Assembly: GCA_017499595.2 (NCBI GenBank) | Contig: CM039001.1 | Coordinates: 2,728,001 to 2,792,000, forward strand | DNA length: 64,000 bases | Reading direction: 5' to 3' | DNA from: Psilocybe cubensis | Taxonomy: Eukaryota | Shown: piece by piece, positions 38,077 to 53,900 of the stretch | Layout of the letters: each line of letters starts with the position of its first letter | How positions within the stretch are numbered: position 1 is the stretch's first letter | Notes under the pieces: generated by a model | Database searches by the model: none | What the model saw: only the letters and a program-made list of their open reading frames with translations | What the model was told of the DNA's origin: nothing | Translations under genes and position numbers: made by a program

Positions 38077-39120
38077 ATGTCCGCTCTTGCCAACTTTGAG
38101 CGCTCCCGCACAGAGGCACGTTTTCTCTTTTCTTCTCCCTCCCTTGCTCATCTCCCTCCAGTTCACAGCCAGTCTCCACGCCGTCGCAGACTCTCTGCGC
38201 AGCTGTGCCCACATCGCAGAGCACTTTGCCAAGCAGCTCGCAGACGCTGAGTATTCTCCAGAGCTCGCTGACTTTATCAATGGTCCGTGCTTCTCTCCAT
38301 TCTTCCCTGACGCGTCTCATCGCGTCCCCAGACGAGTCCGCAAAGGGAAAGCGCAGGGCCCAGCTCTCCCCAGAGGAGGATGGTGTCAAGAAGCGCAAGC
38401 GCAACTCCAAGCCCAAGGACCCCAACGCCCCAAAGCGTCCCCCTTCGTCCTATATTCTCTTCCAGAATGAGGTCCGCAAGGAGCTCAAGGAACAGCATCC
38501 CAACCTTTCAAACCAGGATCTGCTCACCCTGATCGCTGACCAGTGGAAAAACATGTCCGAGGAGCAAAAGGCGGCAAGTCGCGTCGTTTGTCTTTTTGCT
38601 CCTGCCACTCGTCCTCATCTCTTTTTCTAGGCGTACAACAAGGCCATGCAGACCGCGAAGGACCAGTATACTGAGGAGAAAAAGGCATATGACAACCGCA
38701 CTCCGCAGGAGATAGAGGCCGCAAATGCTGCTGCTGCCGCCGCCGCCTCGGTACGTATCCATGTCCCTCATGCCTGTTGTTTGCGCCCTGGTGCACATTA
38801 CTGACGCTGCCTTCATTCAATTCAAATAGCTCAAAAAGGCAAAGCCCCGTGGTCCGAAACCCGCTGCTCCTCCCGCTCCGGCTGTCAAGGCCCGTTCCCC
38901 ACCTGCTGCACACCAGATGCCCCCAAGCAGCCCAGACACCTCTTCTGAAGAGGAATCGGATGAGGACGAAAGCACTGCACCCATCTTGCAGCGCCCTCCC
39001 GACAGCGACTCGAGCGACGACGAGTCGGAGCCAGAACCAGTTCACAAGAAGCGTCGAGCCGCGTCGCCCCAAGCCAAAGCAGCAACCAAAGTCAAAAAAG
39101 AAAAGGGCATGACAGTATAG
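38077..39120 (+). CDS. HMG-box protein (HMGB/Hmo1-like)
   Basis: KPKDPNAPKRPPSSYILFQNEVRKELKEQHP...IADQWKNMSEEQKAAY; acidic and basic tail; includes a GC-AG intron at 38574-38630. Confidence 0.9.
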
Positions 39121-39674: not shown

Positions 39675-40844
39675 ATGTCTGCGCCTCCACCATACGAAAC
39701 TAATCCAGATACGCGAACTTTGCCCGATGGTTGGATATCTCAGTTTGACAACAAGTATGTGGTCTTATCTCGTCTGGATCCGCGTTAGATTGACTTAGAT
39801 GGGATTGGATAGCTATAAAGCCTGGTATGTGTGTTTACGACGTTTGTACCGGTAGCTTACTGAGATGGGTACAGGTTTTATGTGAACACCAAAGCTAACC
39901 CGCCTGTGACGACATGGACACATCCTCTCGGACCCCCGCCCCCGGCACCCCAGCCACAATATGCACCTCCTCCCAATCCACCCCCGGTCAACTCCGGGTA
40001 CAATGGTGGTGGGCCGTACAATAACAACGGACCGAATCCAGGATTCCCATCCGCTCCAGGAGGCAGTGGATATGGGTATAATAACAATCAAGGTGGATAT
40101 GGAGGATATGGTGGCGGGGGATATCAGCAGCAGCAGCAGCAGCCTCCATATGGAGGTGGAGGTGGAGGGTATGGCGATCAGAGAGACTATGGGTATAGTC
40201 AACAACCACAGCAGGGAGGAAGCACAAAAACAGGCAAGCTTCTGGTTCCTTTCTGCTTTGATCTCGCATGAAACTGATGGGAGGTACTACACAGGCCTGC
40301 TAGGTAGCTTATTCGGAAAGAACAAGATTAGCGGTGGTGGTGGAGGCGGGTTTGGAGGTGGAGGTGGTGGATATGGCGGTGGAGGATATCCTCAACAGTA
40401 CCCTCAGCAGCAACCCCAGGTCGTCTATGTGCAACAGCAAGGAAGGCCGCAGAAATCTGGCGGCGGCATGGGAATGGGCGGGCTAGCGTTGGCCGGTACG
40501 TACTTGTCTTGGTCTTCTGACTCCTGTTCTTCTACTCCTGTCCTTTGGGCTTCTGGATTGCGTCCTTGCCTCGAATTGTCTGTGTTCTGGCTTCTGGGCT
40601 ATGCTTGGTGTTATATTTTTCTCTTTTTCCGGTGTCGATGTCCTTGTTTGTACTACTCTGAACTGACATCACGTTTATTTTTTAGGTGGTGCTGGTTTAC
40701 TTGGAGGAGTGCTGCTTGCGGACGCTATTGATGATATTGGTGACAACGGTATGTTTTGCGAAATCTAGACAACGATCGCTTAGGCTTATCTGCTTTCTCC
40801 GTTTAGACTATGGAGGTGATGATTTCGGTGGCGGTGATTGGTAA
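39675..40844 (+). CDS. Small WW-domain, Gly/Tyr/Pro-rich protein (Wwm1-like)
   Basis: LPDGWISQFDNNYKAWFYVNTKANPPVTTWTHP is split over exon 1, a 12-nt micro-exon (39813-39824) and exon 3; GAGLLGGVLLADAIDD...DFGGGDW* tail. Confidence 0.85.
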
Positions 40845-42350
40845 AGCGAAATATCGCTTTGCTAGACTCTGTTCAACTTTGAAGTTATAGTCTTGCTTTT
40901 CTCTTTGATTTTTGCGGTCATTTTTAGTTGCTGATGACCGTTGTACGAATTATTTTCTCTGTTTCACGGTTTCTGTCTATCTATCCAATCTATCGATTCA
41001 TGTCATCAATGGTACTACCTGTTGTGTTGTATTCTGGGCTTGTTATTTCCTCCTCCCATTTATTCTTGCTGCTTTCTTTATTTAGCTGATACCTACTACT
41101 GCAACGCCTTTATTTTTAAGGACCATCTGCATCCCTCGCTTTAGCTATCTTTCTCACAGTGTGCCGTCGTATGCATAGGTTGCATCCTTATCCATCATAG
41201 CTCTGCCTCATCTTTAGCAATCATCTATGACATTGGCCCTTCATCTTACATTACTATCTCTAGTTTGAGACACTTGGGATTGTGTTGAAATTGATATCAA
41301 AGTGATTCAAAGCATCGCGAACCGTGAGAAAGCAATCATCAATGCAACCTGTGTAGGTTGTCAATCTTCGTCTGTCCATCTGTTATCATCATCGTCTGGA
41401 CCAATGCGCCAACGCAATAGCATCTCTGCAAATTCTCCTTGCCGTCATGGTAACATCGCACATCTAGACGTGGTTTATCAAACACTGTTCTCTGTTCGGC
41501 GCCTAAAATCGCGCTGCTTTGCTATAATTGTAACGTTAATCAATCCGGATGGGGTCTTGGGCGGCGGCATGTTGGCGGACATGATCTTACACAGCACTCC
41601 CCCGGTTCCTGGCGCGTTTTTTTTTTGAAGGTCAATCTTGAAGCTCCGAACTGTGAGCCCCGACTCTACCTTTCGTGATTATTTGCGCGGTCTGCGCAGG
41701 GCGAATTTGTAGGAACTGGAGGCGACGGAATGTTAACGGAATGTGACGATAACATTAAATCATCCGTGTCGCTCCACGCTTGCCTGTCGATAAATCCCCG
41801 AGTGTGCTTTCTTATTCATCACGTTAAACTTAGTTCTAATTCTTGAAACTGAGTTTAAAGTTGTTGGTGGTCCTAGAGGCTTGTTGGCAGTGATGTCTTT
41901 TCATCCCAGTGCAGACTCAGGCCTCTTTTTACATGGATTGGTTTTGATAAAGGGATACTTGTTCGCATCTCAGGATTGAGGCTGACAGCAGGTCAGGTTC
42001 ATCATCGACAATTGACCGGCTAGAGACTGCCGATTCAATTGTATGTACCAGGCTGCAACATTGCCTTGCTGTCGGCGAGACATGGACAGGAACATCATCA
42101 CGGACAGGGCAAGACAGATAGGCATCTGTCCTTTGATCCTTTTTAATCTCATGATCTGCCGGGGGATATACTTCGATGAAAGCGGGTTATAATGGACAGC
42201 GGGGGTATCAAGCTTTACTTAAAGAAACGGATTGGCGTGTCTGTCTAGTTGTAACCTTCCCTGCTGCTTTTTTCTCTGGTGAGCGCGCTCTTGGTCGATT
42301 GTTTAAATTATCTGGAAAGAAGCTAATAACATTACAGACATCAATTTGAG

Positions 42351-45300
42351 ATGGAGACTGTTGTTGAAAATCAAGATTCGAGAGCCCTCCCTGAGGGATG
42401 GGTGCAGAATTATGAACCATCGTGAGTACTCCGGTGACTGTTCAGCTGCTAGTAGAATCTCATAGTGTGGATGCCTATAGGAAGCAACTCTGGTAAGCAC
42501 CGTTTCTCTGTACGCAAGGAAACAATCATTGACGCTGTCGTTTCCCAAGGTACTACGTCCAGATGAATGTCATGCCGCCTAAAGTCAGCTTCACCCACCC
42601 TGCCGATCTCGCACCGGCAGGCAAGCAAAAGTCGGCGTCGCCTTCGTCGTCCTTGGTGTCAGAGTCTCGCTCTGGGACCTCCGCTGCCCCATCCCCCCAC
42701 TCATCCCCGGTCCCGCTGGCGAACGTATCTCCTCAGCCCAAAGGACGTACCTCTGCGCAGGAGTTGTATGCCAGTTATTTGAACAAGACAATGCCGCCGA
42801 TGATCAACGCGTCCGGTCTGACCAGCCTGGCTGTGGCGTCCGGGACATCGCAAGCACAGGTGCAAGCGCAGATGGACGAGAGGCGATTTATGAGGACATC
42901 CCCTCCTCCCGTGTCGTCTGTCAATTGGGTGGGGCAAACTTCTGCATCGCCGCCGTTACGCGCACCGATTCCTCGGCCAGTCCCAGGGTCGAGACAGTTG
43001 CCTACGCCCCCTCATTCCTCAGATGAATCTCCTGTAACATCGCCGGCCCCATATCTGCAAACGAATTCAAACACTTCGCCGAATGTACAAACAACTTTTG
43101 GAAATGTGTCTATTAGGAATGGTGCTAACGATAATACTTCCAAACCCACTTCCCCTTTACCCAATGATGCTAATTATCAGCTGCATCGAGCTCAATCTCT
43201 GCAGACAGGGTCTTCGGTGCCAGACCATTTTCAACACGCGCACCAACGTTCACAGACCTTTGCTCCGGGGCAAACGCGACAAGTTGGGCATAATCCGAAT
43301 AATGTGGTCAGTAATGAGATTCCTGTTAATGGGTTGCGACAAACACCGGCCTTGGTCACACACGCTCGACTGCCTAGTCAATCCCCTAGTTTTACGACGG
43401 TTGCCACAAATCCTGTCGCGTCCACTGCACAGTCCCAACCCAATCGATCTCGCCATTATACAACTATCGCCACAAATCCAGTAGCATTTGAGGCCCAACC
43501 TCAGGGCAACCAGTCTACCAATTTTACCAACATGGCCACAAACCACGTAAACCAAATGGGCGCTTCACCGGGTGCGGTGTCTGTTGGTAATACAGGGGTG
43601 CAATCTCTCCCTACCATCCCTTTTTCGCAGACAGCAAGAGCCATGGGTCCACTGCCTTCCCCTCCGATGTCCCCTCCGAATAACACCTCTCCCACATTCA
43701 CTGGCACAACATTTGCGAACCCTACATTCAGTCCACAGATCAATTCAACCGTGGCTCGCCCAAAGAATCAACTCACAAACAGCATGGGTAAAATTGCCAC
43801 TAAATTGGCGGTCGGGGCCGCTTCTGGTTTAATATCGCAAGCCACTGGTATTCCCACAACAGTTGTGAGGTCTGTTTCAAATATAATCACCGATCCAAGA
43901 GTGACTGCCATGTTCAAACGGGCGTTTTCGAGGCAGAATGGACCTATTGGAGACAACGATTTACAAGCTGTTTTACAAGGACACCCCAATGCGAACTATC
44001 AAGGAGTTATTGATGCTTTGATAAAGCAACAACAGGAGTTCAACACTATACAGATGCAGGCTAGTATGGCGTATAAGCCAATTCCCCAGTCACCTGTCGA
44101 TTATCCGGCGTTGATTGCGGAGGTGCAGAGGTTGCAACAGCAGGCACGGGTACAAGCTCAGGCGGCACAGACTCAGGCTCAGATCGCGGCTGCGCAGGCA
44201 GCTGCCTCGCAGAGCACGTTAAATAGTCAATATCAGTCAATTGCAAACCAGTTAACCCAACAAATCGCCCAGCAGGGAATTCAGGCAGTGGCTACGAATC
44301 AGTCGGCGTATTTACCACTCCTGCAGGCGTATTTGGCAGCGCAGGGACAACAGTTGCCGGGTGGGGGGTTGCAGCAAGGACAACAGCAAAATGTACCGCA
44401 GGCACAGTCTCAATCGGCCACACAACAGCAAGTTCAAGTTCATGGTGCACCTCAACAACAACAGGCAGGTCAGCAGCAAACCCAGGCCGCTAACGGCACA
44501 ATTCAGCCGCAACAGCATCAGTCTCCGAACACATTTGTTGCCAATGTACCTCAGAAGCCTGTTCAGCATTTGTCCGTCACTGGTGGGACTTCGTTTGCTC
44601 CCGGAAGACCGACTGCCATTGGAGGAGGGCAAACTGCGGTATCCTCTGGGGGGCAGAGCCACCCACCTGGTGTACAGATACATGCACCTGTTAATCAACT
44701 CGCTGGCGGACAACCGCAGACCTCTGGAGTTCCGCCCCACGTTTCTGCAGGTCAAATTCACTCCGGTGCGCATACGTCTCAGAGCGCTGGGCAACATCCT
44801 TCGAATAACGGCCACCAGCAGCAAAATTCTCCCGCCGGTGGTCAACCTCAGACCAGCCCCACCCAGCAGAACAATGGGGGTCAAGGTGAAAACCCGTATA
44901 CGAAACTGTATGACCAGATCCAGGACGTGTACCAGCAAGTTCAGCAGCAGCAGCAGCAGCAACAACAACCATCTTATACTGACATGTCCAACTCGCTTTA
45001 TAATGGTGGAGTACAACAAAGTCCGCAACAACAACCGTCGTTCACTGATATGATTAACTCTGCATTCAATGGGAATGCACAACAATCGCAGCAGCAGCCC
45101 TCTTTTACGGATATGATCAACTCTACCTTGAATGGGGGACAACAACAGCCACCATTGCCCGATATGCTAAACTCTGTCCTTAATGGAAATGGTCAACTAC
45201 AGCAACCCTCACTGACAGATATGATTAACTCTGCTTTCAACAACGGCGGACAGCAGCCATCCTTCACCGACTATTTGAATTCAGCTTTGAACGGAGGTTC

Positions 45301-45595
45301 AGCTTCTACTCTTCCGGTATATGATACTTCGCTCCTGTACAACGACCCATCATCCGGTGGAAGCAGCAGTGGAATAATGGACAATCTTGTCCAGTCCTTC
45401 GCAAATACCTCTCTAGGGGGAAATGGCTCTTTGCAGACTGATACTTCGGGTTTGAACGGGTTTGTCAATGGTCTTACCCAGGGCTTTTCGACTGATCAGA
45501 CAGACCCTTCTGCCTTCAGTGCTGGTTTTGACCTTGGGTCGCTTGGAGATAGCATTGCATCTAGTATCACCAATTCCTGGTCAGATTCTTCATGA
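42351..45595 (+). CDS. Large (~1040 aa) WW-domain, Gln-rich protein with C-terminal QQPSFTDMINSxxNG repeats
   Basis: METVVENQDSRALPEGWVQNYEPS|KQLW|YYVQMNVMPPKVSFTHP (exon 1, 12-nt micro-exon 42481-42492, exon 3) leads into the 1010-aa ORF 42563-45595. Confidence 0.85.
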
Positions 45596-45793
45596 ATTTT
45601 TAGAAGAAATTCTTTCTTTTCGAAACTTCGCTCACGTTTTATAGTATTATTTGTGGATTCCATGGTTATTTTGGGTGTCTCTTTATTATTTGAAATCTTT
45701 TTCTGTAACAACCTATTACATTTTCCGAAATAAAAGAACTAGGTGCTGGCGTTGGACCAATCACGCTGCCTGTAAACATGACTCGATGCGGTC

Positions 45794-46132
45794 GTCTCCG
45801 CGACGCCGTCCTCCGACAGTGTGATAATAGTAAGATGAACCAGAAGACAATAAGCTGGAATATGAGGAAGACGAAGCTCTGGAAATTGCTGAATCGGACA
45901 AAAGTGACTTAGAATCTAGGATATCCGATGTAAATGAACTTGAAGAAAAAGAGGACCAGGAGATTATGATCGATGACGTATAGTGTGCATGTCACCTTTA
46001 AACATTTCAAAACAACGGTGCAGGTTCATGTTCAAATCGCGCCTTGGGCCCCAGAACTTCATCCATGTTGCGTACTGCAGCTGCAGAGCGTCAGTTGGCA
46101 CGTCAGCAAGATTGAATATTTCCAGGACCTGG
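45794..46132 (+). pseudogene. RAD16 exon-2 relic
   Basis: Aligns by eye to 51410-51734 (e.g. gctgcagagcgtc(a/g)gttggcacgtcagc); has indels and a stop; exon 1 is deleted. Confidence 0.9.
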
Positions 46133-46147
46133 CCCTCAGGATTTCCC

Positions 46148-46295
46148 GAACTGACATTACGTTTGTTCTTTGTAAGGCGTGCTGGTTTACTCCACCATAT
46201 GTTTTCCGAAATTTAGACAATGATCACTTAGGCTTATCTGCTTTCTCTGTTTAGATTACGGACTCGGTGATGATTTCGGTGGCCGTGATTGGTAA
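46148..46295 (+). pseudogene. Relic of the 3' end of the small WW gene
   Basis: Matches 40660-40844 (last intron plus ggtgatgatttcggtggc-gtgattggtaa) with an internal deletion. Confidence 0.88.
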
Positions 46296-47589
46296 AGCGA
46301 AATTTTGCCGCTTGCTAGACTCTGTTCAATTTTGAAGTTATAGTCTTGCTTTTCCTCTTGATTTTGCAGTCATTTTTAGTTGCTGATGACCTTTGTACGA
46401 GCTATTTCCCATGTTTTCCAGCTTCTGTTGTCCAGTCTTTCGATTCATATCATCAATGGTGTTGTTGTGTTTTATTCTGGGCTTGTTATTCTCCCCTCCC
46501 ATTTATTCTTGCTCCTTTAGCTGGTAGCTACAATGGCAAAACCTATGCATTTAAAGGCCATCTGCATCCACCGCTTTAGCTCATATCTTTCTCACAGTAT
46601 ACCAGGTGCATAGGTTGCGTCTATATCTATCATAGCTCTGCCTCATCTTCAGCAATCATCGATGACCATGGTCTTCCTTGTTCTTATTTTTGCTATCTAT
46701 ACGCTGAGAAGCTTCATCGGATTGTGTTCAAATTGAATTCAAAGCGATTCAGAGCATCGCGCTGGAACCGTGAGAAAGCAATCAACAAACAAACTTCGCG
46801 CCCTCTGTAATTGTCTATCTTTCTCTGGCCATCTATTATTATCATCATCTGAACATATTCCTGCACCAATGTGCCAACTCAAAAGCATCTTTGTAAACTC
46901 TTCCTGCCGTCATAGTAGCATCGTACGACAAGACGTGGTTTATCAAACGCTTTTCGCGGTTCGGCGCCTAAAATTACTACACGGGTGCAAACTAAATCCG
47001 GATGGGGTATTGGCTGGGTATTGGATTTGGGCGGCGGTATGTTGGCTAAAAAAGTTCCTGATTTCACACACCACTCTTTCCGGTTCCTGGCAGGACGAGA
47101 TGGTTCAAAGCTACAAACTGTGAGCCCTAGGAAGCGACGGAATATTAACAAAATATAACGATCACCGTATTAAATTATCTGTGTTGTTGCAAGGCCATTG
47201 CCCCAGCAATATATCCCCAAGTGCGCTTCTTTATTCTTCGTGTTAAGATTAGTTCTAAATTTTGAAACTTGCCTTGAGTTAAAAGGGTTCATCAGCGATA
47301 TTTACCCACCACTGATGTCTGCGGATTCAAACATATGCATTATGCATGCTGTAACATTGCCTTGCTGTTCGCAGAAACATCATGACAGACAGGGCAAGAC
47401 AGATACATCTGTTCTTGGTCCTTTTTAATCTTCATATTCCAATGAAAGCGTACATATATCAACTTGAAGAACCGTATTGAGGTGTCTGTCTAGCTGTAAC
47501 TTTCCCTGCTTTGCTCTTTTCTCTGGTGAGCGCTCTTGGTCGACTTTTATCCGGAAAGAAGCTAATAACAATACAGACATCAATTTGAG

Positions 47590-50500
47590 ATGGAGACTGT
47601 TGTTGAAAATCAAGATTCGAGACCCCTCCCTGAGGGATGGGTGCAGAACTATGAACCATCGTGAGCACTCCGGTGACTGTTCAGCTGCTAGCAAAATCTC
47701 ATAGTGCGCATGCTTATAGGATGCAACTCTGGTAAGCAGCGTTTTTATGTACGCAAAGAAGCAATCATTGACGCTGTCGTTTCCCAAGGTACTACGTCCA
47801 GATGAATGTCATGCCGCCTAAAGTCAGCTTCACCCACCCTGCCGATCTCGCACCGGCAGGCAAGCAAAAGTCGGCGTCGCCTTCGTCATCCTTGGAATCA
47901 GACTCTCGCTCTAAGAGCTCTGCTGCCCCATCCCCCCATTCATCCCCTGTCCCGCTCGCAAATATGTCTCCTCAGCCCACAGCGTCGTCTGTAATTTGGG
48001 TGAAGGATAATTCTGCATCGCCGCCTTTATGTGCGCCGATTCCTCAGCCAGTTCCAGGGTCGAGACAGTTGCCTGCACCTCCTCATTCCTCAGATGAATC
48101 GCATGTGACATTGTCAGTCCTGTACCCGTCAGCGCATGCAAACAATGCACCGAATGCACAACTAACTTTGGGGAATATGTCTTCTGGGAATGGTGCTAAT
48201 GATAATGTTTCCAAACTCACTCCTCCCTCACTCTATGATGTTAATTACCAGCTTCATCAAGCGCAAGCTCTTCAGCCGTGGTCCTCCTTGCCAGACCATC
48301 TTCAACACGTGCACCAACGTTCACAGACTTTCGCTCCGGGGCAAACGCGACAAGTTGGGCATAATCCAAATAATGTGGTCAGTAATGAGGTTCCTGCCTG
48401 TGTTAATGGGTTTCAACAAACACAGGCCTTGGTCACACACGCTCGACTGCCCAGTCAACCCCCTAGTTTTACGACAGTTGCCACAAATCCTGTCGCGGCC
48501 ACTGCTCAGTCCCAACCCGATCGATCTCGCCATTATACAACTATAGCCACAAATCCAGTAGCATTTGAGGTCCAACCTCAGGGCAACCAGTCTACCAATT
48601 TTACCAACATGGCTACAAACCACGTAAACCAAATGGGCGCTTCACCGGGTGCGGTGTCTGTTGGTAATACAGGGGCGCCATCTCTCCCTACCTTCCTTTT
48701 TTCGCAGACAGGAAGAGTCATGGGTCCGCGGCCTCCCCCTCTGAATAACACCTCTCCCACATTCACTGGCTCAACGTTTGCGAACCCAACATCCAATCTG
48801 CAAATCAATTCGGCCATGACTCGCCCAAATAATCAACTCGCAAACAGTATGGGCAAAATTGCCGCTAAAGTGGCGATTGAGGCCGCTTCTGGTTTTGTAT
48901 CTCAAGCCACTGGTATTCCGACGACAGTTATGAGGTCTGTCGGAAATTTCATCACCGATCGCAGATTAATTTTCATGTGGAAAGGGATGTTTGAGAAGAA
49001 GAAAAACCCCATTCAGGCCAAAGTCTTACAAGCTGTTTTAGAAGGAGACCCCAAAGCAAATTATCAAGGAGTTATTGATGCTTTGATAAAGCAACAACAG
49101 GAGCTCAACGCTGTACAGATGAAGGCTAGCATGGCGTATAAGCCAATTCCCAGTCACCTATAGATTATACGGCGTTGATTGCGGAGGTGAAGAGGTTGCA
49201 ACAGCAGGCACGGGTACAAGTTCAGGCGGCACAGACTCAGGCTCAGATAGCGGCTGCGCAGGCGGCTGCCTCACAGAATATGTCAAATAACCAATATCAG
49301 TCCATTGCAAACCAGTTAACCCTTCAAAATTTTCAACAGGAAATTCAGGCAGCGGCTACAACTCAACGTGCCTATTTGCCTGTCTTGCAGCAGGTCTATT
49401 TGGTAGCGCAGGGCCACCAGTTGCAGCAAGGACAACAGCAAAATGTACCGCAGTCAGCCGCGCAACAGCAAGTTCCAGTTTATCTTGCACCTCTACAATT
49501 GCAGGCAAGCCAGCCGCAAACCCAGGCCGCTAACGGCGCAATCCAGCCGCAACAGCATCAGTCTCCAAACACATTTGTTGACAATGTACCTCAGACACTT
49601 GTTCAGTATTCGTCCGTCACTGGTGAAACTACGTTTGCTCCCGGAAGACTAGCCGCTATTGGAGGAGGGCGACCTGCGGTATCATCTGGGGGGCAGAGCC
49701 ACCCACCTGTTAATCAACTCGCTGGTGGACAATCGCAGATCTTTGGAGTTCAGGCCAACGTTTCTGCTGGTGATATTCACCCCGGTGTGTATACGTCCCA
49801 GATCGCTGGGCACCATTATTCAAATAGCGGTCACCAACAGCAAAATTCTCCCGCCGGTGGTCAACCTCAGACCAGCCCCACCCAGCAGAACAATGGGGGT
49901 CAAGGTGAAAATCTGTATACGAAACTGTATGACCAGATCCAGGACATGTACCAGCAAGTTCAGCAGCAACAGCAACAGCAACAACAACCATCTGATACCG
50001 ACATGTCCAACTTGCTTTATAATAGTGGAGTACCACAAATTCCGCCACAACAATCATTGTTAACTGACATGAATAACTCTGCATTTAACGGGAGTGTACA
50101 ACAATCGCAGCAGCAGCCTTCTTTTACGGATATGCCCAACTCTAGGAATGGGGGACAACAACAGCCACCATTGCCCGATACTATGCTAAACTCTGTCTTT
50201 TACGGAAATGGTCAACAACAGCAATCCTCACCAACCGATGTGATCAACTCTGCTTTCAACAACGGTGGACAGCAGTTATTGTTCACCAACTATTTGACCT
50301 CCCCTTTGAACGCCGGAGGTTCAGCTTCTAATCCTCTAGTATATGACACTTGGCTTCTTTACGACACACCTTCGCCCGGTGGAGGCAGCGGTGGAACAAT
50401 GGATAATCTTGTCCAGTCTTTTGCCAATACCTCTCTAGGGGGAGATGACTCTTTTCAGACTGATACTTTGGGTTTGAACGGGTTTGTCAATGGTCTTACC

Positions 50501-50617
50501 CAGGGCTTTTCGACAGATCAGACAGATCCTTCCGCCTTCAGTGCTGGTTTTGACCTTGGGTCGCTTGGAGATGATATTGCATCTAGTATCACCAATTCCT
50601 GGTCAGATTCTTCATAA
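47590..50617 (+). pseudogene. Second copy of the large WW/Q-rich gene, frameshifted at about 49150 (recent pseudogene or sequencing error)
   Basis: Same exon structure as 42351-45595. ATTCCCCAGTCA in copy A is ATTCCCAGTCA in copy B (-1 C), splitting the ORF into 47802-49163 and 49175-50617. Confidence 0.8.
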
Positions 50618-50819
50618 CTTTGTTAGACAAAATTCTTTCTTTTTGGGATAAAAATTATACGCGCATTCTGTATCGCCTGTGGATTCAATGTCTCGAATGT
50701 TTCTTCCTAATTTCATTTTTCTGATGTTTTTGTAACCATCTATGTAATTTTCCAAACTGTTGGCGTTGGACCAAGTACTACTAGGTTTACAGCAGTCATG
50801 CCGTGTTAAATATGACTCG

Positions 50820-50839
50820 ACGCGTCAATAATAGCGCGT
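50820..50839. promoter_or_regulatory. MCB-like elements (ACGCGT, GCGCGT) upstream of RAD16
   Basis: Two CGCG boxes about 140-155 nt before the ATG; the first is mutated to ATGCGG in the duplicated dead promoter near 45786. Confidence 0.5.
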
Positions 50840-50975
50840 TACCATCAGCACTGCACGGTCCCGTGACGTTACATCCTCATTTATTAGTCACCTCTTCGGT
50901 TGGACCCCTGAAATTTGTTCTTTGTTCTTTCCCCCATCATTACTAGTATTGACTTTTTTCCCGCCTCTTCTTATT

Positions 50976-53900
50976 ATGAGGACTACTCGCTCTTCGGCGA
51001 GGATTGCTTTGTCGTCTTCAACAGCGACTTCCATTTCCAATCCTTCTCCAGCATTGAGTTCTAGGGCTGAGTCCATAAAGACAGAGGCTGAAACGCCTAT
51101 GACTTCTGACCTTGAAGAAGATTTGGTCCCTGTCAAGACGCGCAATGCAAGTGCGCGAGGAAGCAAAAGGGGGGCCAAACGCTTTACTGAGAATGACGAT
51201 GAGGAAGAGTCGATATCTGTCGCCCCTGCGCCTAAACGAAGACGCAGTGCTACTGTTACCCAACAAGTTTACGTGGCAGTCCCAACTGCGAAAATCAAAG
51301 GAAAATTACAGGTTAGGAAGCTCTTTGATGAAAAGTAGACCATCTCCGTGAATGATATTTACAGAAAGAGACTCCAAAGACTAGGGGAAAGGGCAAGGCC
51401 AAAGATGTTGTCTCCGCAAGGCCGTCCTCCGACAGTGAGAATGAACCAGAAGATAGCGACCTGGAATACGACGAAGACGAAGCTCGGGAAATTGATGAAT
51501 CGGACGAAAGTGACTCAGAGTTTAGGATATCTGATGCAGATGAAGAAGACGAGGAGATTATGATCGATGACGCAGTGCGCCTGTCACTTCAAACATCTCA
51601 AGCCAACGGTGCCGGCTCATCTTCGAATCGTGTCGCGGGCCCCAGCCCTGCCGCCATGTTGCGTGCTGCAGCTGCAGAGCGTCGGTTGGCACGTCAGCGA
51701 GAAGCTGAGACGGTCGAAAATTTCCAGGAACTGGACAGCGACGACTTAGATGAATTTTCTTCGGAAGATGAGCCATTAGCAGACATTTTATCCAGCGAGG
51801 GGAAAGGAAAAGGAAAGGAACTCTTTACTTCAACTCCGACGAGGATGATTTCTTCAAAGAAGTCCATGACATTATCTGAACTGAAGAAACTAGCTAAGGA
51901 GCGACGCTCGGCGTTTCGCAATGCTCGCATTGCAAACAAGAAAGAGGAACGTGCACTTGTGAAAGAGCTTGGCAGGAGATTGACCCATGTAAGTCCTTGC
52001 ATTCCTGAGCGCCTCTTTTGCCAACATCAACGTTTCTTTTAGGCGGAGAGAACGTCCCTTGCTTTGCGCAGGAATCACCCTGAATTGAGGGATGTCTGGG
52101 GTGATCTCGAAAAGGATATTCCCATCATTCAGCCCAAGAAAGCAGAACAGCCTACCAATCTCAAATTAACATTACTTCCCTTCCAAAAAGAAAGTTTGTA
52201 TTGGATGAAACAGCAAGAGAAGGGTGTTTGGAGCGGTGGTATGTTAGCAGTAAGTCTTTTCATACCGTCTTGTTTATGTCATACCTTTAACATATCTCGT
52301 AGGATGAAATGGGGTATGATTTTTTATAGTTGCATGACCACCCTGCTGATTCATAATCTCAGAATGGGGAAGACTATTCAGATCATATCGTTGTTCGTAT
52401 CTGACGGTTCAAAACCCAACCTGGTCGTTGCGTTAGTTTCTACGAGTTTCTTTCTCACACGTTCATTTGCTGATCAGGTTTTAGCCCTACCGTGGCCATC
52501 ATGCAGTGGAGAAATGAAATTGAGGCCCATACGGATGGTTTGAAGGTGCTTGTATGGCACGGGAGCTCTCGTGAATCCGATGCGACTGAATTAGCCAAGT
52601 ACGACGTTGTATGTGTTTTGATCGATTCTATAATTCTTTCTCGTTCTGACGTTTTCTAGGTGTTAACAACTTATGCTGTCCTCGAAAGGTACGTTTGAGT
52701 TGGCTTGTTCAATATCAATCGCTAACATCTTTGATTTTAGCTGCTTCCGTAAGCAGCACAGTGGATTCAAACGAAAAGGCTTAATTGTCAAGGAGAAATC
52801 GCCTGTACATCAGGTTGACTGGAACAGAGTTGTTTTAGACGAAGCTCATAATATTAAAGAGCGATCAACCAACACGGCAAAGGCAGCATTTGAACTCAAA
52901 TCTAAATTTAGGTGGTGTCTTTCGGGAACGCCTCTCCAAAATCGTGTCGGAGAACTTTACAGTCTCGTTCGATTCTTAGGAGGAGATCCTTTCTCATATT
53001 ATTTTTGTATGTTCCCATTCTTATGATTCTCGGTAGTGTATTGACCCGCATCCTTTAGGTAAGCTGTGTGAATGCAAATCCTTGCATTGGACTTTCAGCG
53101 ACAAGAAATCCTGTGACGGTGTGTTTCGCTTATAAATACACTCATCTATAATCCTTCTAAATGTCCCTATAGATTGCGGACACAGTCCCATGCAGCATGT
53201 TTGTCGCTTCTCGTCCCAAAAGCTTGGATTGTTTAAACTAACGCACACTCCACAGACTTGTTTTTGGAATACCGAAATTCTCACACCGATTCAAAAACAT
53301 GGCATGATTGGCCCTGGCAAGAACGCTTTCAAGAAACTCAAGATTCTATTGGATAGAATGATGCTTCGGAGAACCAAAGTCATAAAATCTAACCTTTTAA
53401 TTTCCACAGTTGCTGATATTTCATCCGTAGCTCCAAAAAGCAGACGATCTGGGTTTACCACCGAGAACTGTGCTCGTTCGACGTGATTATTTTAGCCCCG
53501 AAGAAAAGGAACTTTATTTATCTCTCTTCTCGGACGCAAAACGACAATTTAATACGTATCTTGATCACGGAACCGTTTTGAATAGTTCGTATTCATCTTC
53601 TGTTGAATCTTGTTGGGTTGAAAATGCTCATGTTGTTTTCCTCATGTACAGATTACTCCAATATTTTTAGTCTGTGAGTTCACATTTATTTCTCATTGAA
53701 TGTGGGACATTCTGATCCTTGTGGTACCAGGCTCACTCGAATGAGACAGATGGCGTGTCATCCAGATCTTGTCCTTCGGAGCAAGACGAACGCCACTCAG
53801 TTCGTGGCTGATGTAGCTGATGACACTACCGTTTGCCGTATTTGCAATGACATTGCGGAGGATGCTATTCAAGCTAAATGCAGACATATTTTCGATCGTG

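Follow-up and report, generated by a model that had tools for sequence, protein, structure and literature searches.

A shared 12-nucleotide micro-exon splits the predicted WW domains of a Wwm1-like gene and two tandem Gln-rich paralogues in Psilocybe cubensis

A 64,000-nucleotide stretch of the Psilocybe cubensis genome (GenBank assembly GCA_017499595.2, contig CM039001.1, positions 2,728,001 to 2,792,000 of the forward strand; hereafter the window, with all coordinates counted from its first letter) raises the question of how one small gene and two much larger ones come to begin with the same interrupted domain. A preliminary description, made from the sequence alone, had proposed that all three genes carry a WW domain split by a 12-nucleotide micro-exon, that an old local duplication of a Wwm1-like gene produced the large protein, and that the large gene then duplicated again. 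Our analysis confirms that the underlying observation is correct and well beyond chance. The three genes, here called g1, g2 and g3, lie on the plus strand, and each encodes an N-terminal WW-type domain that is interrupted at identical positions, with borders located by script. We consider it likely, and hold with good confidence, that the locus consists of a Wwm1-family gene followed by two paralogues of a large Gln-rich gene, that all three share a WW-type domain split by a micro-exon, and that the two paralogues are the product of tandem duplication.

The first gene, g1 (39675-40844, plus strand), is a Wwm1-family gene of six exons that encodes 250 amino acids, as modelled from the gene structure, contig joints and orthologues. 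Its exons are located at 39675-39754, 39813-39824, 39875-40233, 40295-40495, 40686-40748 and 40807-40844. The second of these is the 12-nucleotide micro-exon, which is enclosed by the phase-2 introns 39755-39812 and 39825-39874. The second gene, g2 (42351-45595, plus strand), encodes a large Gln/Ser/Pro-rich protein of 1042 amino acids from three exons (42351-42421, the micro-exon 42481-42492, and 42550-45595). Its tandem paralogue g3 (47590-50617, plus strand) is built in the same way (47590-47660, the micro-exon 47720-47731, and 47789-50617) and encodes 482 amino acids, an X and 487 amino acids across a one-base frame break. The positions proposed earlier for the three micro-exons (39813, 42481 and 47720) proved exact.

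In all three genes, exon 1 breaks off after the second base of a codon, the micro-exon contributes 1+9+2 bases, and exon 3 gives the last base of a Trp codon. The flanking introns are therefore of phase 2 in three out of three genes. The protein alignment needs no gaps, and in it the introns interrupt the same residues downstream of the GW motif. All six introns around the micro-exons are 50-59 nucleotides long and bounded by GT..AG. The two phase-2 introns that had been described around a 12-nucleotide exon are thus present in each gene, with identical phases and positions. In the g2 protein, the micro-exon codes for the start of the second WW strand, including two bases of the codon for an invariant Trp.

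Is the micro-exon part of the transcript? We addressed this with contigs from four runs. X3 and X4 are DNA runs. For X1 and X2, which stem from one study, the RNA type is not on record. We call these two runs RNA-like on the grounds that six intervals bounded by GT..AG or GC..AG are missing from their contigs but not from those of X3 or X4. All five g1 introns appear as joints in the X1 and X2 contigs, including 40234-40294, 40496-40685 and 40749-40806, and in none of the X3 or X4 contigs. The intron 40234-40294 is of the GC..AG type, which is the sole canonical reading within the 6-base ambiguity of its joint. At the micro-exon, one X1 and one X2 contig lead from exon 1 to exon 3, that is from 39758 to 39874, with 7 letters in between. 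In both runs, these 7 letters, together with 4 letters placed on the intron start (with 1 mismatch) and the final G, spell the micro-exon. It is thus complete in the RNA-like contigs and therefore part of the g1 transcript. A joint between exon 1 and exon 3 that skips the g1 micro-exon is not listed in the X1 or X2 contigs, which do, however, drop rare variants.

For the large genes, the RNA-like contigs give no cover over 41535-42815, which includes the g2 micro-exon, or over 48367-50928 in g3; both are gaps in cover only. At g3, an X1 contig that begins at 47788 carries 8 loose letters matching the end of the micro-exon. All nine X1 contigs match the window at 99% or more, X1 depth is nil at the matching part of g2, and we estimate from bin depths that the contig extends into g3-specific sequence. 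We take this as a weak hint at a joint between the g3 micro-exon and exon 3, given that it comes from one contig end and that g2 and g3 do not differ over the first ~100 bases of exon 3. The expectation that the micro-exons are found in RNA is thus borne out for g1, with a hint for g3.

The public gene models tell a different story. The open reading frame (ORF) 42536-45595 of g2 is 100% identical to the P. cubensis protein JR316_0005117 (P0001, 1038 amino acids), and g3 is represented by JR316_0005118 (P0005, 481 amino acids), which ends at the g3 frame break. A further model, P0059 (445 amino acids), agrees with the second half of g3 wherever we compared the two by eye. In both P0001 and P0005, exon 1 is joined straight to exon 3 and exactly the four residues of the micro-exon are lost. 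A predictor can skip this exon in frame because 12 is a multiple of three. The four residues that open strand 2 are then missing, which hides the WW domain. Neither P0001 nor P0005 gives a Pfam WW match. The same four residues are present in the orthologue models P0003 (Panaeolus papilionaceus), P0002 (Panaeolus cyanescens) and P0004 (Agrocybe chaxingu). When the micro-exon is added, the score rises from 76.9 to 99.9 bits for g2 and from 82.2 to 101.2 bits for g3 on a large-family profile built from orthologues, and from 70.5 to 89.3 bits for g1 on a Wwm1-like profile of 17 family N-termini.

This failure is not confined to Psilocybe. Among 131 collected proteins, 91 contain LPxGW motifs, 112 in total, for which we counted the spacing to the downstream aromatic pair. 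The full spacing of 11 is found in 98 motifs, and the exact loss of four residues (spacing 7) in eight. Five of these eight models belong to the clade of the large proteins (P0001, P0005, P0074, P0110 and P0117) and three are Wwm1-like (P0023, P0033 and P0045). Two motifs have a spacing of 28 (P0041 and P0043), which we interpret as intron read-through, and the other four have a spacing of 10, 9 or 3, or lack a downstream match. Since exact four-residue losses occur in both families, the micro-exon is conserved beyond Psilocybe in both.

These observations also allow for a different interpretation, in which the micro-exon is an alternative exon and the proteins shorter by four residues are real isoforms, with the WW fold switched off and the frame unchanged. 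Skipping does preserve the frame, predictors have chosen the skipped form in at least eight models, and a micro-exon switch has been described in a Trichoderma gene (PMC11121469, in the portion available). Nevertheless, we regard this scenario as improbable. The g1 contigs of both RNA-like runs include the micro-exon and list no skipped joint, within the limit on rare variants given above; its residues are included in 98 of the 112 motif instances; and the skipped form would lose the invariant Trp and the start of strand 2. Very small exons that are missed by prediction, and whose inclusion alters a domain, have been described for plant micro-exons (PMC8831610) and for Xlr2 of Trichoderma (PMC11121469), as far as the accessible parts of these articles go. 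What sets the P. cubensis exon apart from these published cases is its position within a WW domain, its presence in two gene families and, to the extent that the contigs reveal it, its constitutive use.

Once the micro-exon is restored, does the N-terminus of the large proteins qualify as a WW domain? A comparison of 13 large-family with 17 Wwm1-like N-termini using hhalign gave a probability of 99.2% and an E-value of 6.2e-20 over 47 ungapped columns, and g2 scores 49.2 bits on a profile made from Wwm1-like sequences only. The L, P, G and W of the LPxGW motif and the W-Y-Y columns are invariant in all 13 large-family sequences, as well as in spliced g2 and g3. The first residue of W-Y-Y is an extra invariant Trp directly before the YY pair; the second intron cuts through the codon of this Trp. 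The likeness between the large and the Wwm1-like domains exceeds the general WW pattern: both have an NPDxRPLPxGW lead-in, the Trp directly ahead of the aromatic pair, PP in the second loop and HP at the end. As had been noted earlier, the second signature Trp is Phe in the large proteins, which we see in both g2 and g3 after splicing. This position is occupied by Phe, Tyr, Leu, Thr, His or Val in 30 of the 30 rows of the Trp-less clade described below, while the closing Pro is kept.

Structural comparisons point in the same direction. A profile of the 13 N-termini matched 49 sequences in the PDB at E ≤ 10, mostly WW-domain proteins, including WWP1, Itch, KIBRA, NEDD4L and YAP chains; the best match was WWP1 (1.5e-9 for the whole chain). 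An AlphaFold2 model of the N-terminus of the orthologue P0003 has strands at residues 22-27, 32-37 and 44-46. The mean predicted local distance difference test (pLDDT) score of this model is 79.5, with means of 89-94 for the ten-residue blocks over residues 11-50 and values above 90 in the core. In a Foldseek search with this model, the best 50 rows were all WW or WW-like (the DGCR8 dimerisation domain), many with a root-mean-square deviation of 1.3-2.4 Å over 34-42 columns.

Several results speak against this assignment. None of 11 correctly spliced large-family members reached the Pfam WW (PF00397) cut-off of 26.9 bits. Eight of the 11 scored 13.2-26.0 bits (the best being P0076 with 26.0) and matched only from position 1 to positions 19-23 of the 31 in the Pfam profile, and P0003 scored 12.9 bits. 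The Foldseek E-values were weak (0.14-0.72), as expected for a domain of 35 residues. Pfam searches with the unspliced pieces (the g2 ORF, the first g3 ORF, g1 exon 3 and two exon-1 pieces) found no families, and the second g3 ORF gave only a SLATT_6 match at chance level (E 0.43). One could therefore argue that the large proteins have no WW domain at their N-terminus and that the likeness of this part to g1 is due to chance or composition, as would fit the Pfam scores below the cut-off and the missing second Trp. We give this argument very little credence. It is countered by the hhalign E-value, by PDB profile matches that are mostly WW domains, by a three-stranded model with a confident core and only WW or WW-like rows among its best 50, and by intron positions identical to those of g1.

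The hidden WW domain claimed for the large proteins is thus upheld by profile, model and fold comparison, and falls short at the Pfam cut-off. The N-terminus of the large family is predicted to fold as a three-stranded WW-type sheet. Judging from its sequence, it appears to be derived from the 'NPD-type' WW domain of basidiomycete Wwm1, with the second Trp lost. Compared with canonical WW domains (PF00397; NEDD4/Rsp5, YAP and Pin1 types), it keeps LPxGW, the aromatic pair of strand 2, the closing Pro and the predicted three-stranded sheet. In contrast, it lacks the second Trp, has an extra invariant Trp and misses the Pfam cut-off. Trp-less WW-like domains were named 'meta-WW' in a classification of yeast WW domains (Hesselberth et al. 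2006, PMC1557994). According to the available part of that article, the second conserved Trp is also missing from the meta-WW domains of Set2, Ssm4, Aus1, Vid30 and Alg9, which fit no ligand class. These proteins differ from the large family in identity and architecture, and we liken them by the description in that part of the article only.

The small gene g1 provides the link to Wwm1. Its protein starts with a PPPY motif (residues 4-7), followed by the WW domain, a Gly/Pro/Gln/Tyr-rich region, a hydrophobic Gly/Ala/Leu segment and an acidic tail; Gly makes up 26.8% of its residues. A search with part of the Panaeolus orthologue as query returned 47 Wwm1-like matches. One of these (P0037 from Trichomonascus, E 6e-9) bears the name 'Wwm1p' in its source, and the search also found proteins of Aspergillus and Daldinia that share the C-terminal segment. 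The architecture of these proteins is constant and comprises PPxY, WW, a Gly/Tyr/Gln/Pro-rich stretch, a hydrophobic segment of the form KKSG...GAGLLGG...DAIDD and an acidic Asp/Gly/Phe tail. PPxY is present in many g1 orthologues. The Wwm1-like proteins P0006, P0008 and P0037 pass the Pfam WW cut-off with 29.2, 28.5 and 42.8 bits, respectively, over the full profile (1-31). The g1 family occurs across Agaricomycetes, and a form with a shorter loop is found in ascomycetes.

Based on these similarities, g1 encodes a Wwm1-family protein, where membership refers to the relation to proteins named Wwm1, S. cerevisiae Wwm1 itself not being among the compared sequences. As far as the available parts of the yeast literature report, the PPxY motif is conserved in Wwm1 orthologues (PMC1557994), Wwm1 is counted among the yeast hydrophilins (PMC3306391), and it 'interacts genetically with Mca1' (PMC1557994). 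From the same partial sources, S. cerevisiae Wwm1 (YFL010C) and its fungal orthologues resemble g1 in being Gly-rich hydrophilic proteins with a single N-terminal WW domain and a preceding PPxY. The basidiomycete form differs from four ascomycete Wwm1 sequences by the NPDxRPLPxGW lead-in and a loop that is two residues longer before the last strand. Moreover, its WW domain is split by the micro-exon. By analogy, g1 may act like Wwm1, as a small hydrophilic adaptor that combines a WW domain with its own PPxY motif. The literature that we found on Wwm1 concerns yeast only; we found nothing on the large family, for which no specific search term exists.

How did the large gene acquire its WW domain? 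In Psilocybe, the Wwm1-like and the large genes are adjacent, with the same order and orientation. The Panaeolus cyanescens model P0002 is a fusion of a Wwm1-like part followed by a large protein, and both genes therefore adjoin in the same order in that species. In Agrocybe chaxingu, the large gene (g10995) probably adjoins a Wwm1-like fragment (g10996), as judged from their consecutive tags and the fact that both are on 4468-bp contigs. We further calculated a tree of 93 WW segments over 41 columns with a quick search, rooted on four ascomycete Wwm1 sequences; its rows had been gathered by similarity to two queries. Here, the NPD-type segments form one group (Shimodaira-Hasegawa-like approximate likelihood ratio test, SH-aLRT, 95). 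Inside it, a clade of 30 Trp-less segments (SH-aLRT 91), in which the second Trp occurs in none of the 30, holds all 12 segments from proteins with the central motifs described below. The identical introns, the profile match, the tree and the adjacency all fit an old local duplication of a Wwm1-like gene.

A number of points weigh against this origin. The adjacency is seen in three related genera only, namely Psilocybe, Panaeolus and, by inference, Agrocybe. In the tree, 47 of 90 inner branches are unresolved over its 41 columns, and it comprises no Rsp5-, Prp40- or Ess1-type WW domains from the same fungi. In addition, g1 and g2 can be aligned in the WW part only. We also observed a third family with three to four NPD-type WW repeats and the same lead-in motif (P0014, P0067, P0068, P0071, P0087 and P0127). 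This multi-WW family could equally be the source of the WW domain in the large proteins.

These points lead to an alternative scenario, in which the WW domain of the large family does not derive from the adjacent Wwm1-like gene. Instead, an older NPD-type WW gene, already equipped with the micro-exon, would be the common ancestor of all of these genes, the multi-WW family included, and their neighbouring position would be secondary or specific to a lineage. Consistent with this, the multi-WW proteins resemble the large family in their NPDxRPLPxGW lead-in and in a THPA[DE]-type ending, the tree places the Trp-less clade as sister to no particular Wwm1-like group, and the alignment of g1 and g2 is confined to the WW part. 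On the other hand, the gene order in Psilocybe, the fused model in Panaeolus cyanescens and the probable neighbours in Agrocybe argue for a local event, and the exact four-residue losses in mis-predicted models of both families point to the same micro-exon. We consider the alternative rather unlikely, albeit with an appreciable chance of being correct.

The birth of the large gene by an old local duplication of a Wwm1-like gene, as put forward in the preliminary description, is thus plausible and not proven, because only the WW part aligns, a multi-WW source is possible and the tree is based on 41 columns. The synteny and phylogeny called for at the time agree with it in that the genes are neighbours in Panaeolus and, by inference, in Agrocybe, and that the Trp-less clade falls within the NPD-type WW domains, in a tree built without unrelated WW genes.

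The second duplication is shown by the sequence. In a self-BLASTN comparison, 40750-46111 is repeated at 46198-51702 in four blocks of 78-84% identity. The junction between the two copies is bridged by X3 record 16 (45564-47601) and X4 record 23 (45960-47178). Together with the alignments, this shows that copy 1 comprises the end of the last g1 intron, the last g1 exon, intergenic DNA, g2 and a relic of the downstream gene, and that copy 2 comprises a relic of the last g1 exon, g3 and the 5' part of the intact downstream gene. The left end of the duplication falls in the last intron of g1, and copy 2 therefore opens with the exon relic (~46255-46295), an orphan that has acquired a 3-base insertion. 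The right end falls in the downstream gene, and copy 1 therefore closes with the relic of that gene (45791-46111), a duplicated exon that has been cut short. g2 and g3 thus originate from one 5.4-kilobase tandem segmental duplication, which substantiates the earlier statement that the large gene duplicated again.

What has become of g3 since then? The proteins of g2 and g3 are identical at 738 of 937 aligned amino acids, with a synonymous divergence (dS) of 0.24, a nonsynonymous divergence (dN) of 0.11 and a dN/dS of 0.47. The DNA alignment of exon 3 contains 12 gaps, one of which is an end artefact. Of the other 11, ten have lengths divisible by three and one is a single C. This C corresponds to the frame break of g3, where one ORF ends at 49163 and the next starts at 49142, and where the window has the C run CCC (49149-49151, plus strand) in the place of CCCC in g2. 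In both DNA runs, an extra C behind 49148 is read at full depth (61.1/61.1 in X3, 25.4/25.4 in X4). We therefore attribute the break to an error in the assembly or to a strain allele, not to general decay. Both copies have stayed in frame since the duplication.

The frame break in the window, together with the public annotation of g3 as two models, could alternatively suggest that g3 is a decaying pseudogene copy and that only g1 and g2 are functional. Two further findings count against an intact g3: 56 codons of g2 are missing from it, including the AQxLYASS motif that is conserved in orthologues, and a dN/dS of 0.47 relative to g2 does not reflect strong constraint. However, the extra C in two other DNA runs restores the frame. 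Apart from this base, ~970 codons are open at a dS of 0.24 with ten of 11 real indels being multiples of three, and the tail of the micro-exon opens one RNA-like contig on g3 exon 3. We therefore hold the pseudogene scenario to be unlikely. Of the two copies, both of which remained in frame, g3 is the more derived.

Run X4 differs from the window between 39400 and 52200 at many intergenic sites. In g3, it lacks 3 bases at 47892, which leaves the frame intact, and part of its depth lacks 2 bases at 47740 in the second intron. These differences indicate strain diversity at the locus.

Beyond the WW domain, the large proteins constitute an uncharacterised fungal family that is mostly disordered and Gln-rich. 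The g2 protein contains 14.2% Gln, 11.9% Ser and 9.5% Pro. A first similarity search with the g2 ORF found three proteins only. A profile of three members, searched against 1.84 billion representatives, retrieved 82 proteins at E ≤ 1e-3, 29 of them at E ≤ 1e-10. The disordered Ser/Pro/Thr-rich region contains the short motifs AQxLYASS, RPTPHLxTxARPP and SPPxSSxLFS. It is accompanied by a conserved region with the motifs SDLQAVxQGxPxANYQAVINAL and DYQALIxExQRLQ, which is followed by the Gln-rich tail. For the conserved central region of g2 (43766-44200, plus strand), AlphaFold2 with a 23-row alignment predicts helices with a mean pLDDT of 77.4, exceeding 90 for most of residues 60-145. Residues 73-145 form a predicted helical hairpin (pLDDT ~90) that leads into the Gln-rich part. 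Pfam searches with the 23 rows detected only WW, in seven rows, and Foldseek found no match to this region in the PDB at E ≤ 0.001. In a wide VIA-align search, the matches were generic helical hairpins with Z no higher than 7.2, a value within the noise range for helical models.

One further protein, P0111 (1411 amino acids), has Trp-less WW N-termini at residues 7 and 806. In appearance it is a gene model that has run together two neighbouring copies of the large gene of another species, and duplication in tandem may therefore recur in this family.

What might these proteins do? The large proteins could serve as multivalent scaffolds, in which the N-terminal Trp-less WW domain would dock a proline-containing ligand. 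The conserved short motifs in the disordered part would provide further sites for binding or modification, and the helical hairpin and the Gln-rich helices would drive self-association. We offer this picture, drawn from composition and predicted structure, tentatively and rate its chances as somewhat below even. A predicted complex between the large-family WW domain and the Wwm1-like N-terminus, run without alignments, scored 0.02, which speaks neither for nor against binding. A bolder version would state that the Trp-less WW proteins are a basidiomycete invention from a tandem duplication of Wwm1, that they continue to act together with Wwm1, their WW domain docking onto the PPPY motif of the neighbouring protein, that the hairpin and Gln helices bring both proteins into stress-responsive condensates, and that the 12-nucleotide exon acts as a splice switch for the WW domain in both families. 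In this combined form, we regard the proposal as a long shot.

The locus is flanked by genes of other kinds. Directly upstream of g1 lies a gene for an HMG-box protein (38103-38630, plus strand; Pfam HMG_box, 57.5 bits, E 1.9e-15). The downstream gene (50931-52200, plus strand) encodes an acidic Asp/Glu/Ser-rich protein and appears in the RNA-like contigs with introns at ~51306-51358 and ~51989-52042; no Pfam family was found in either of the two ORFs tested.

Taken together, the locus is ordinary in kind. It combines WW-domain genes, a tandem duplication and annotation errors, does not represent a new kind of system, and leaves the understanding of WW domains in general unchanged. Two public gene models, and probably a third, are corrected by its description: four residues and with them a domain are restored to g2 and g3, and the two fragments of g3 become one gene of ~970 codons. 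The 12-nucleotide exon, conserved within the WW domain of two fungal gene families and a repeated failure point of predictors, makes a useful test case for annotation pipelines. Finally, the analysis defines a protein family with a predicted Trp-less WW domain, short motifs, a putative helical hairpin and a Gln-rich tail, whose likely parent is the little-understood Wwm1, and thereby provides a starting point for asking what role Wwm1-type proteins play in mushrooms.

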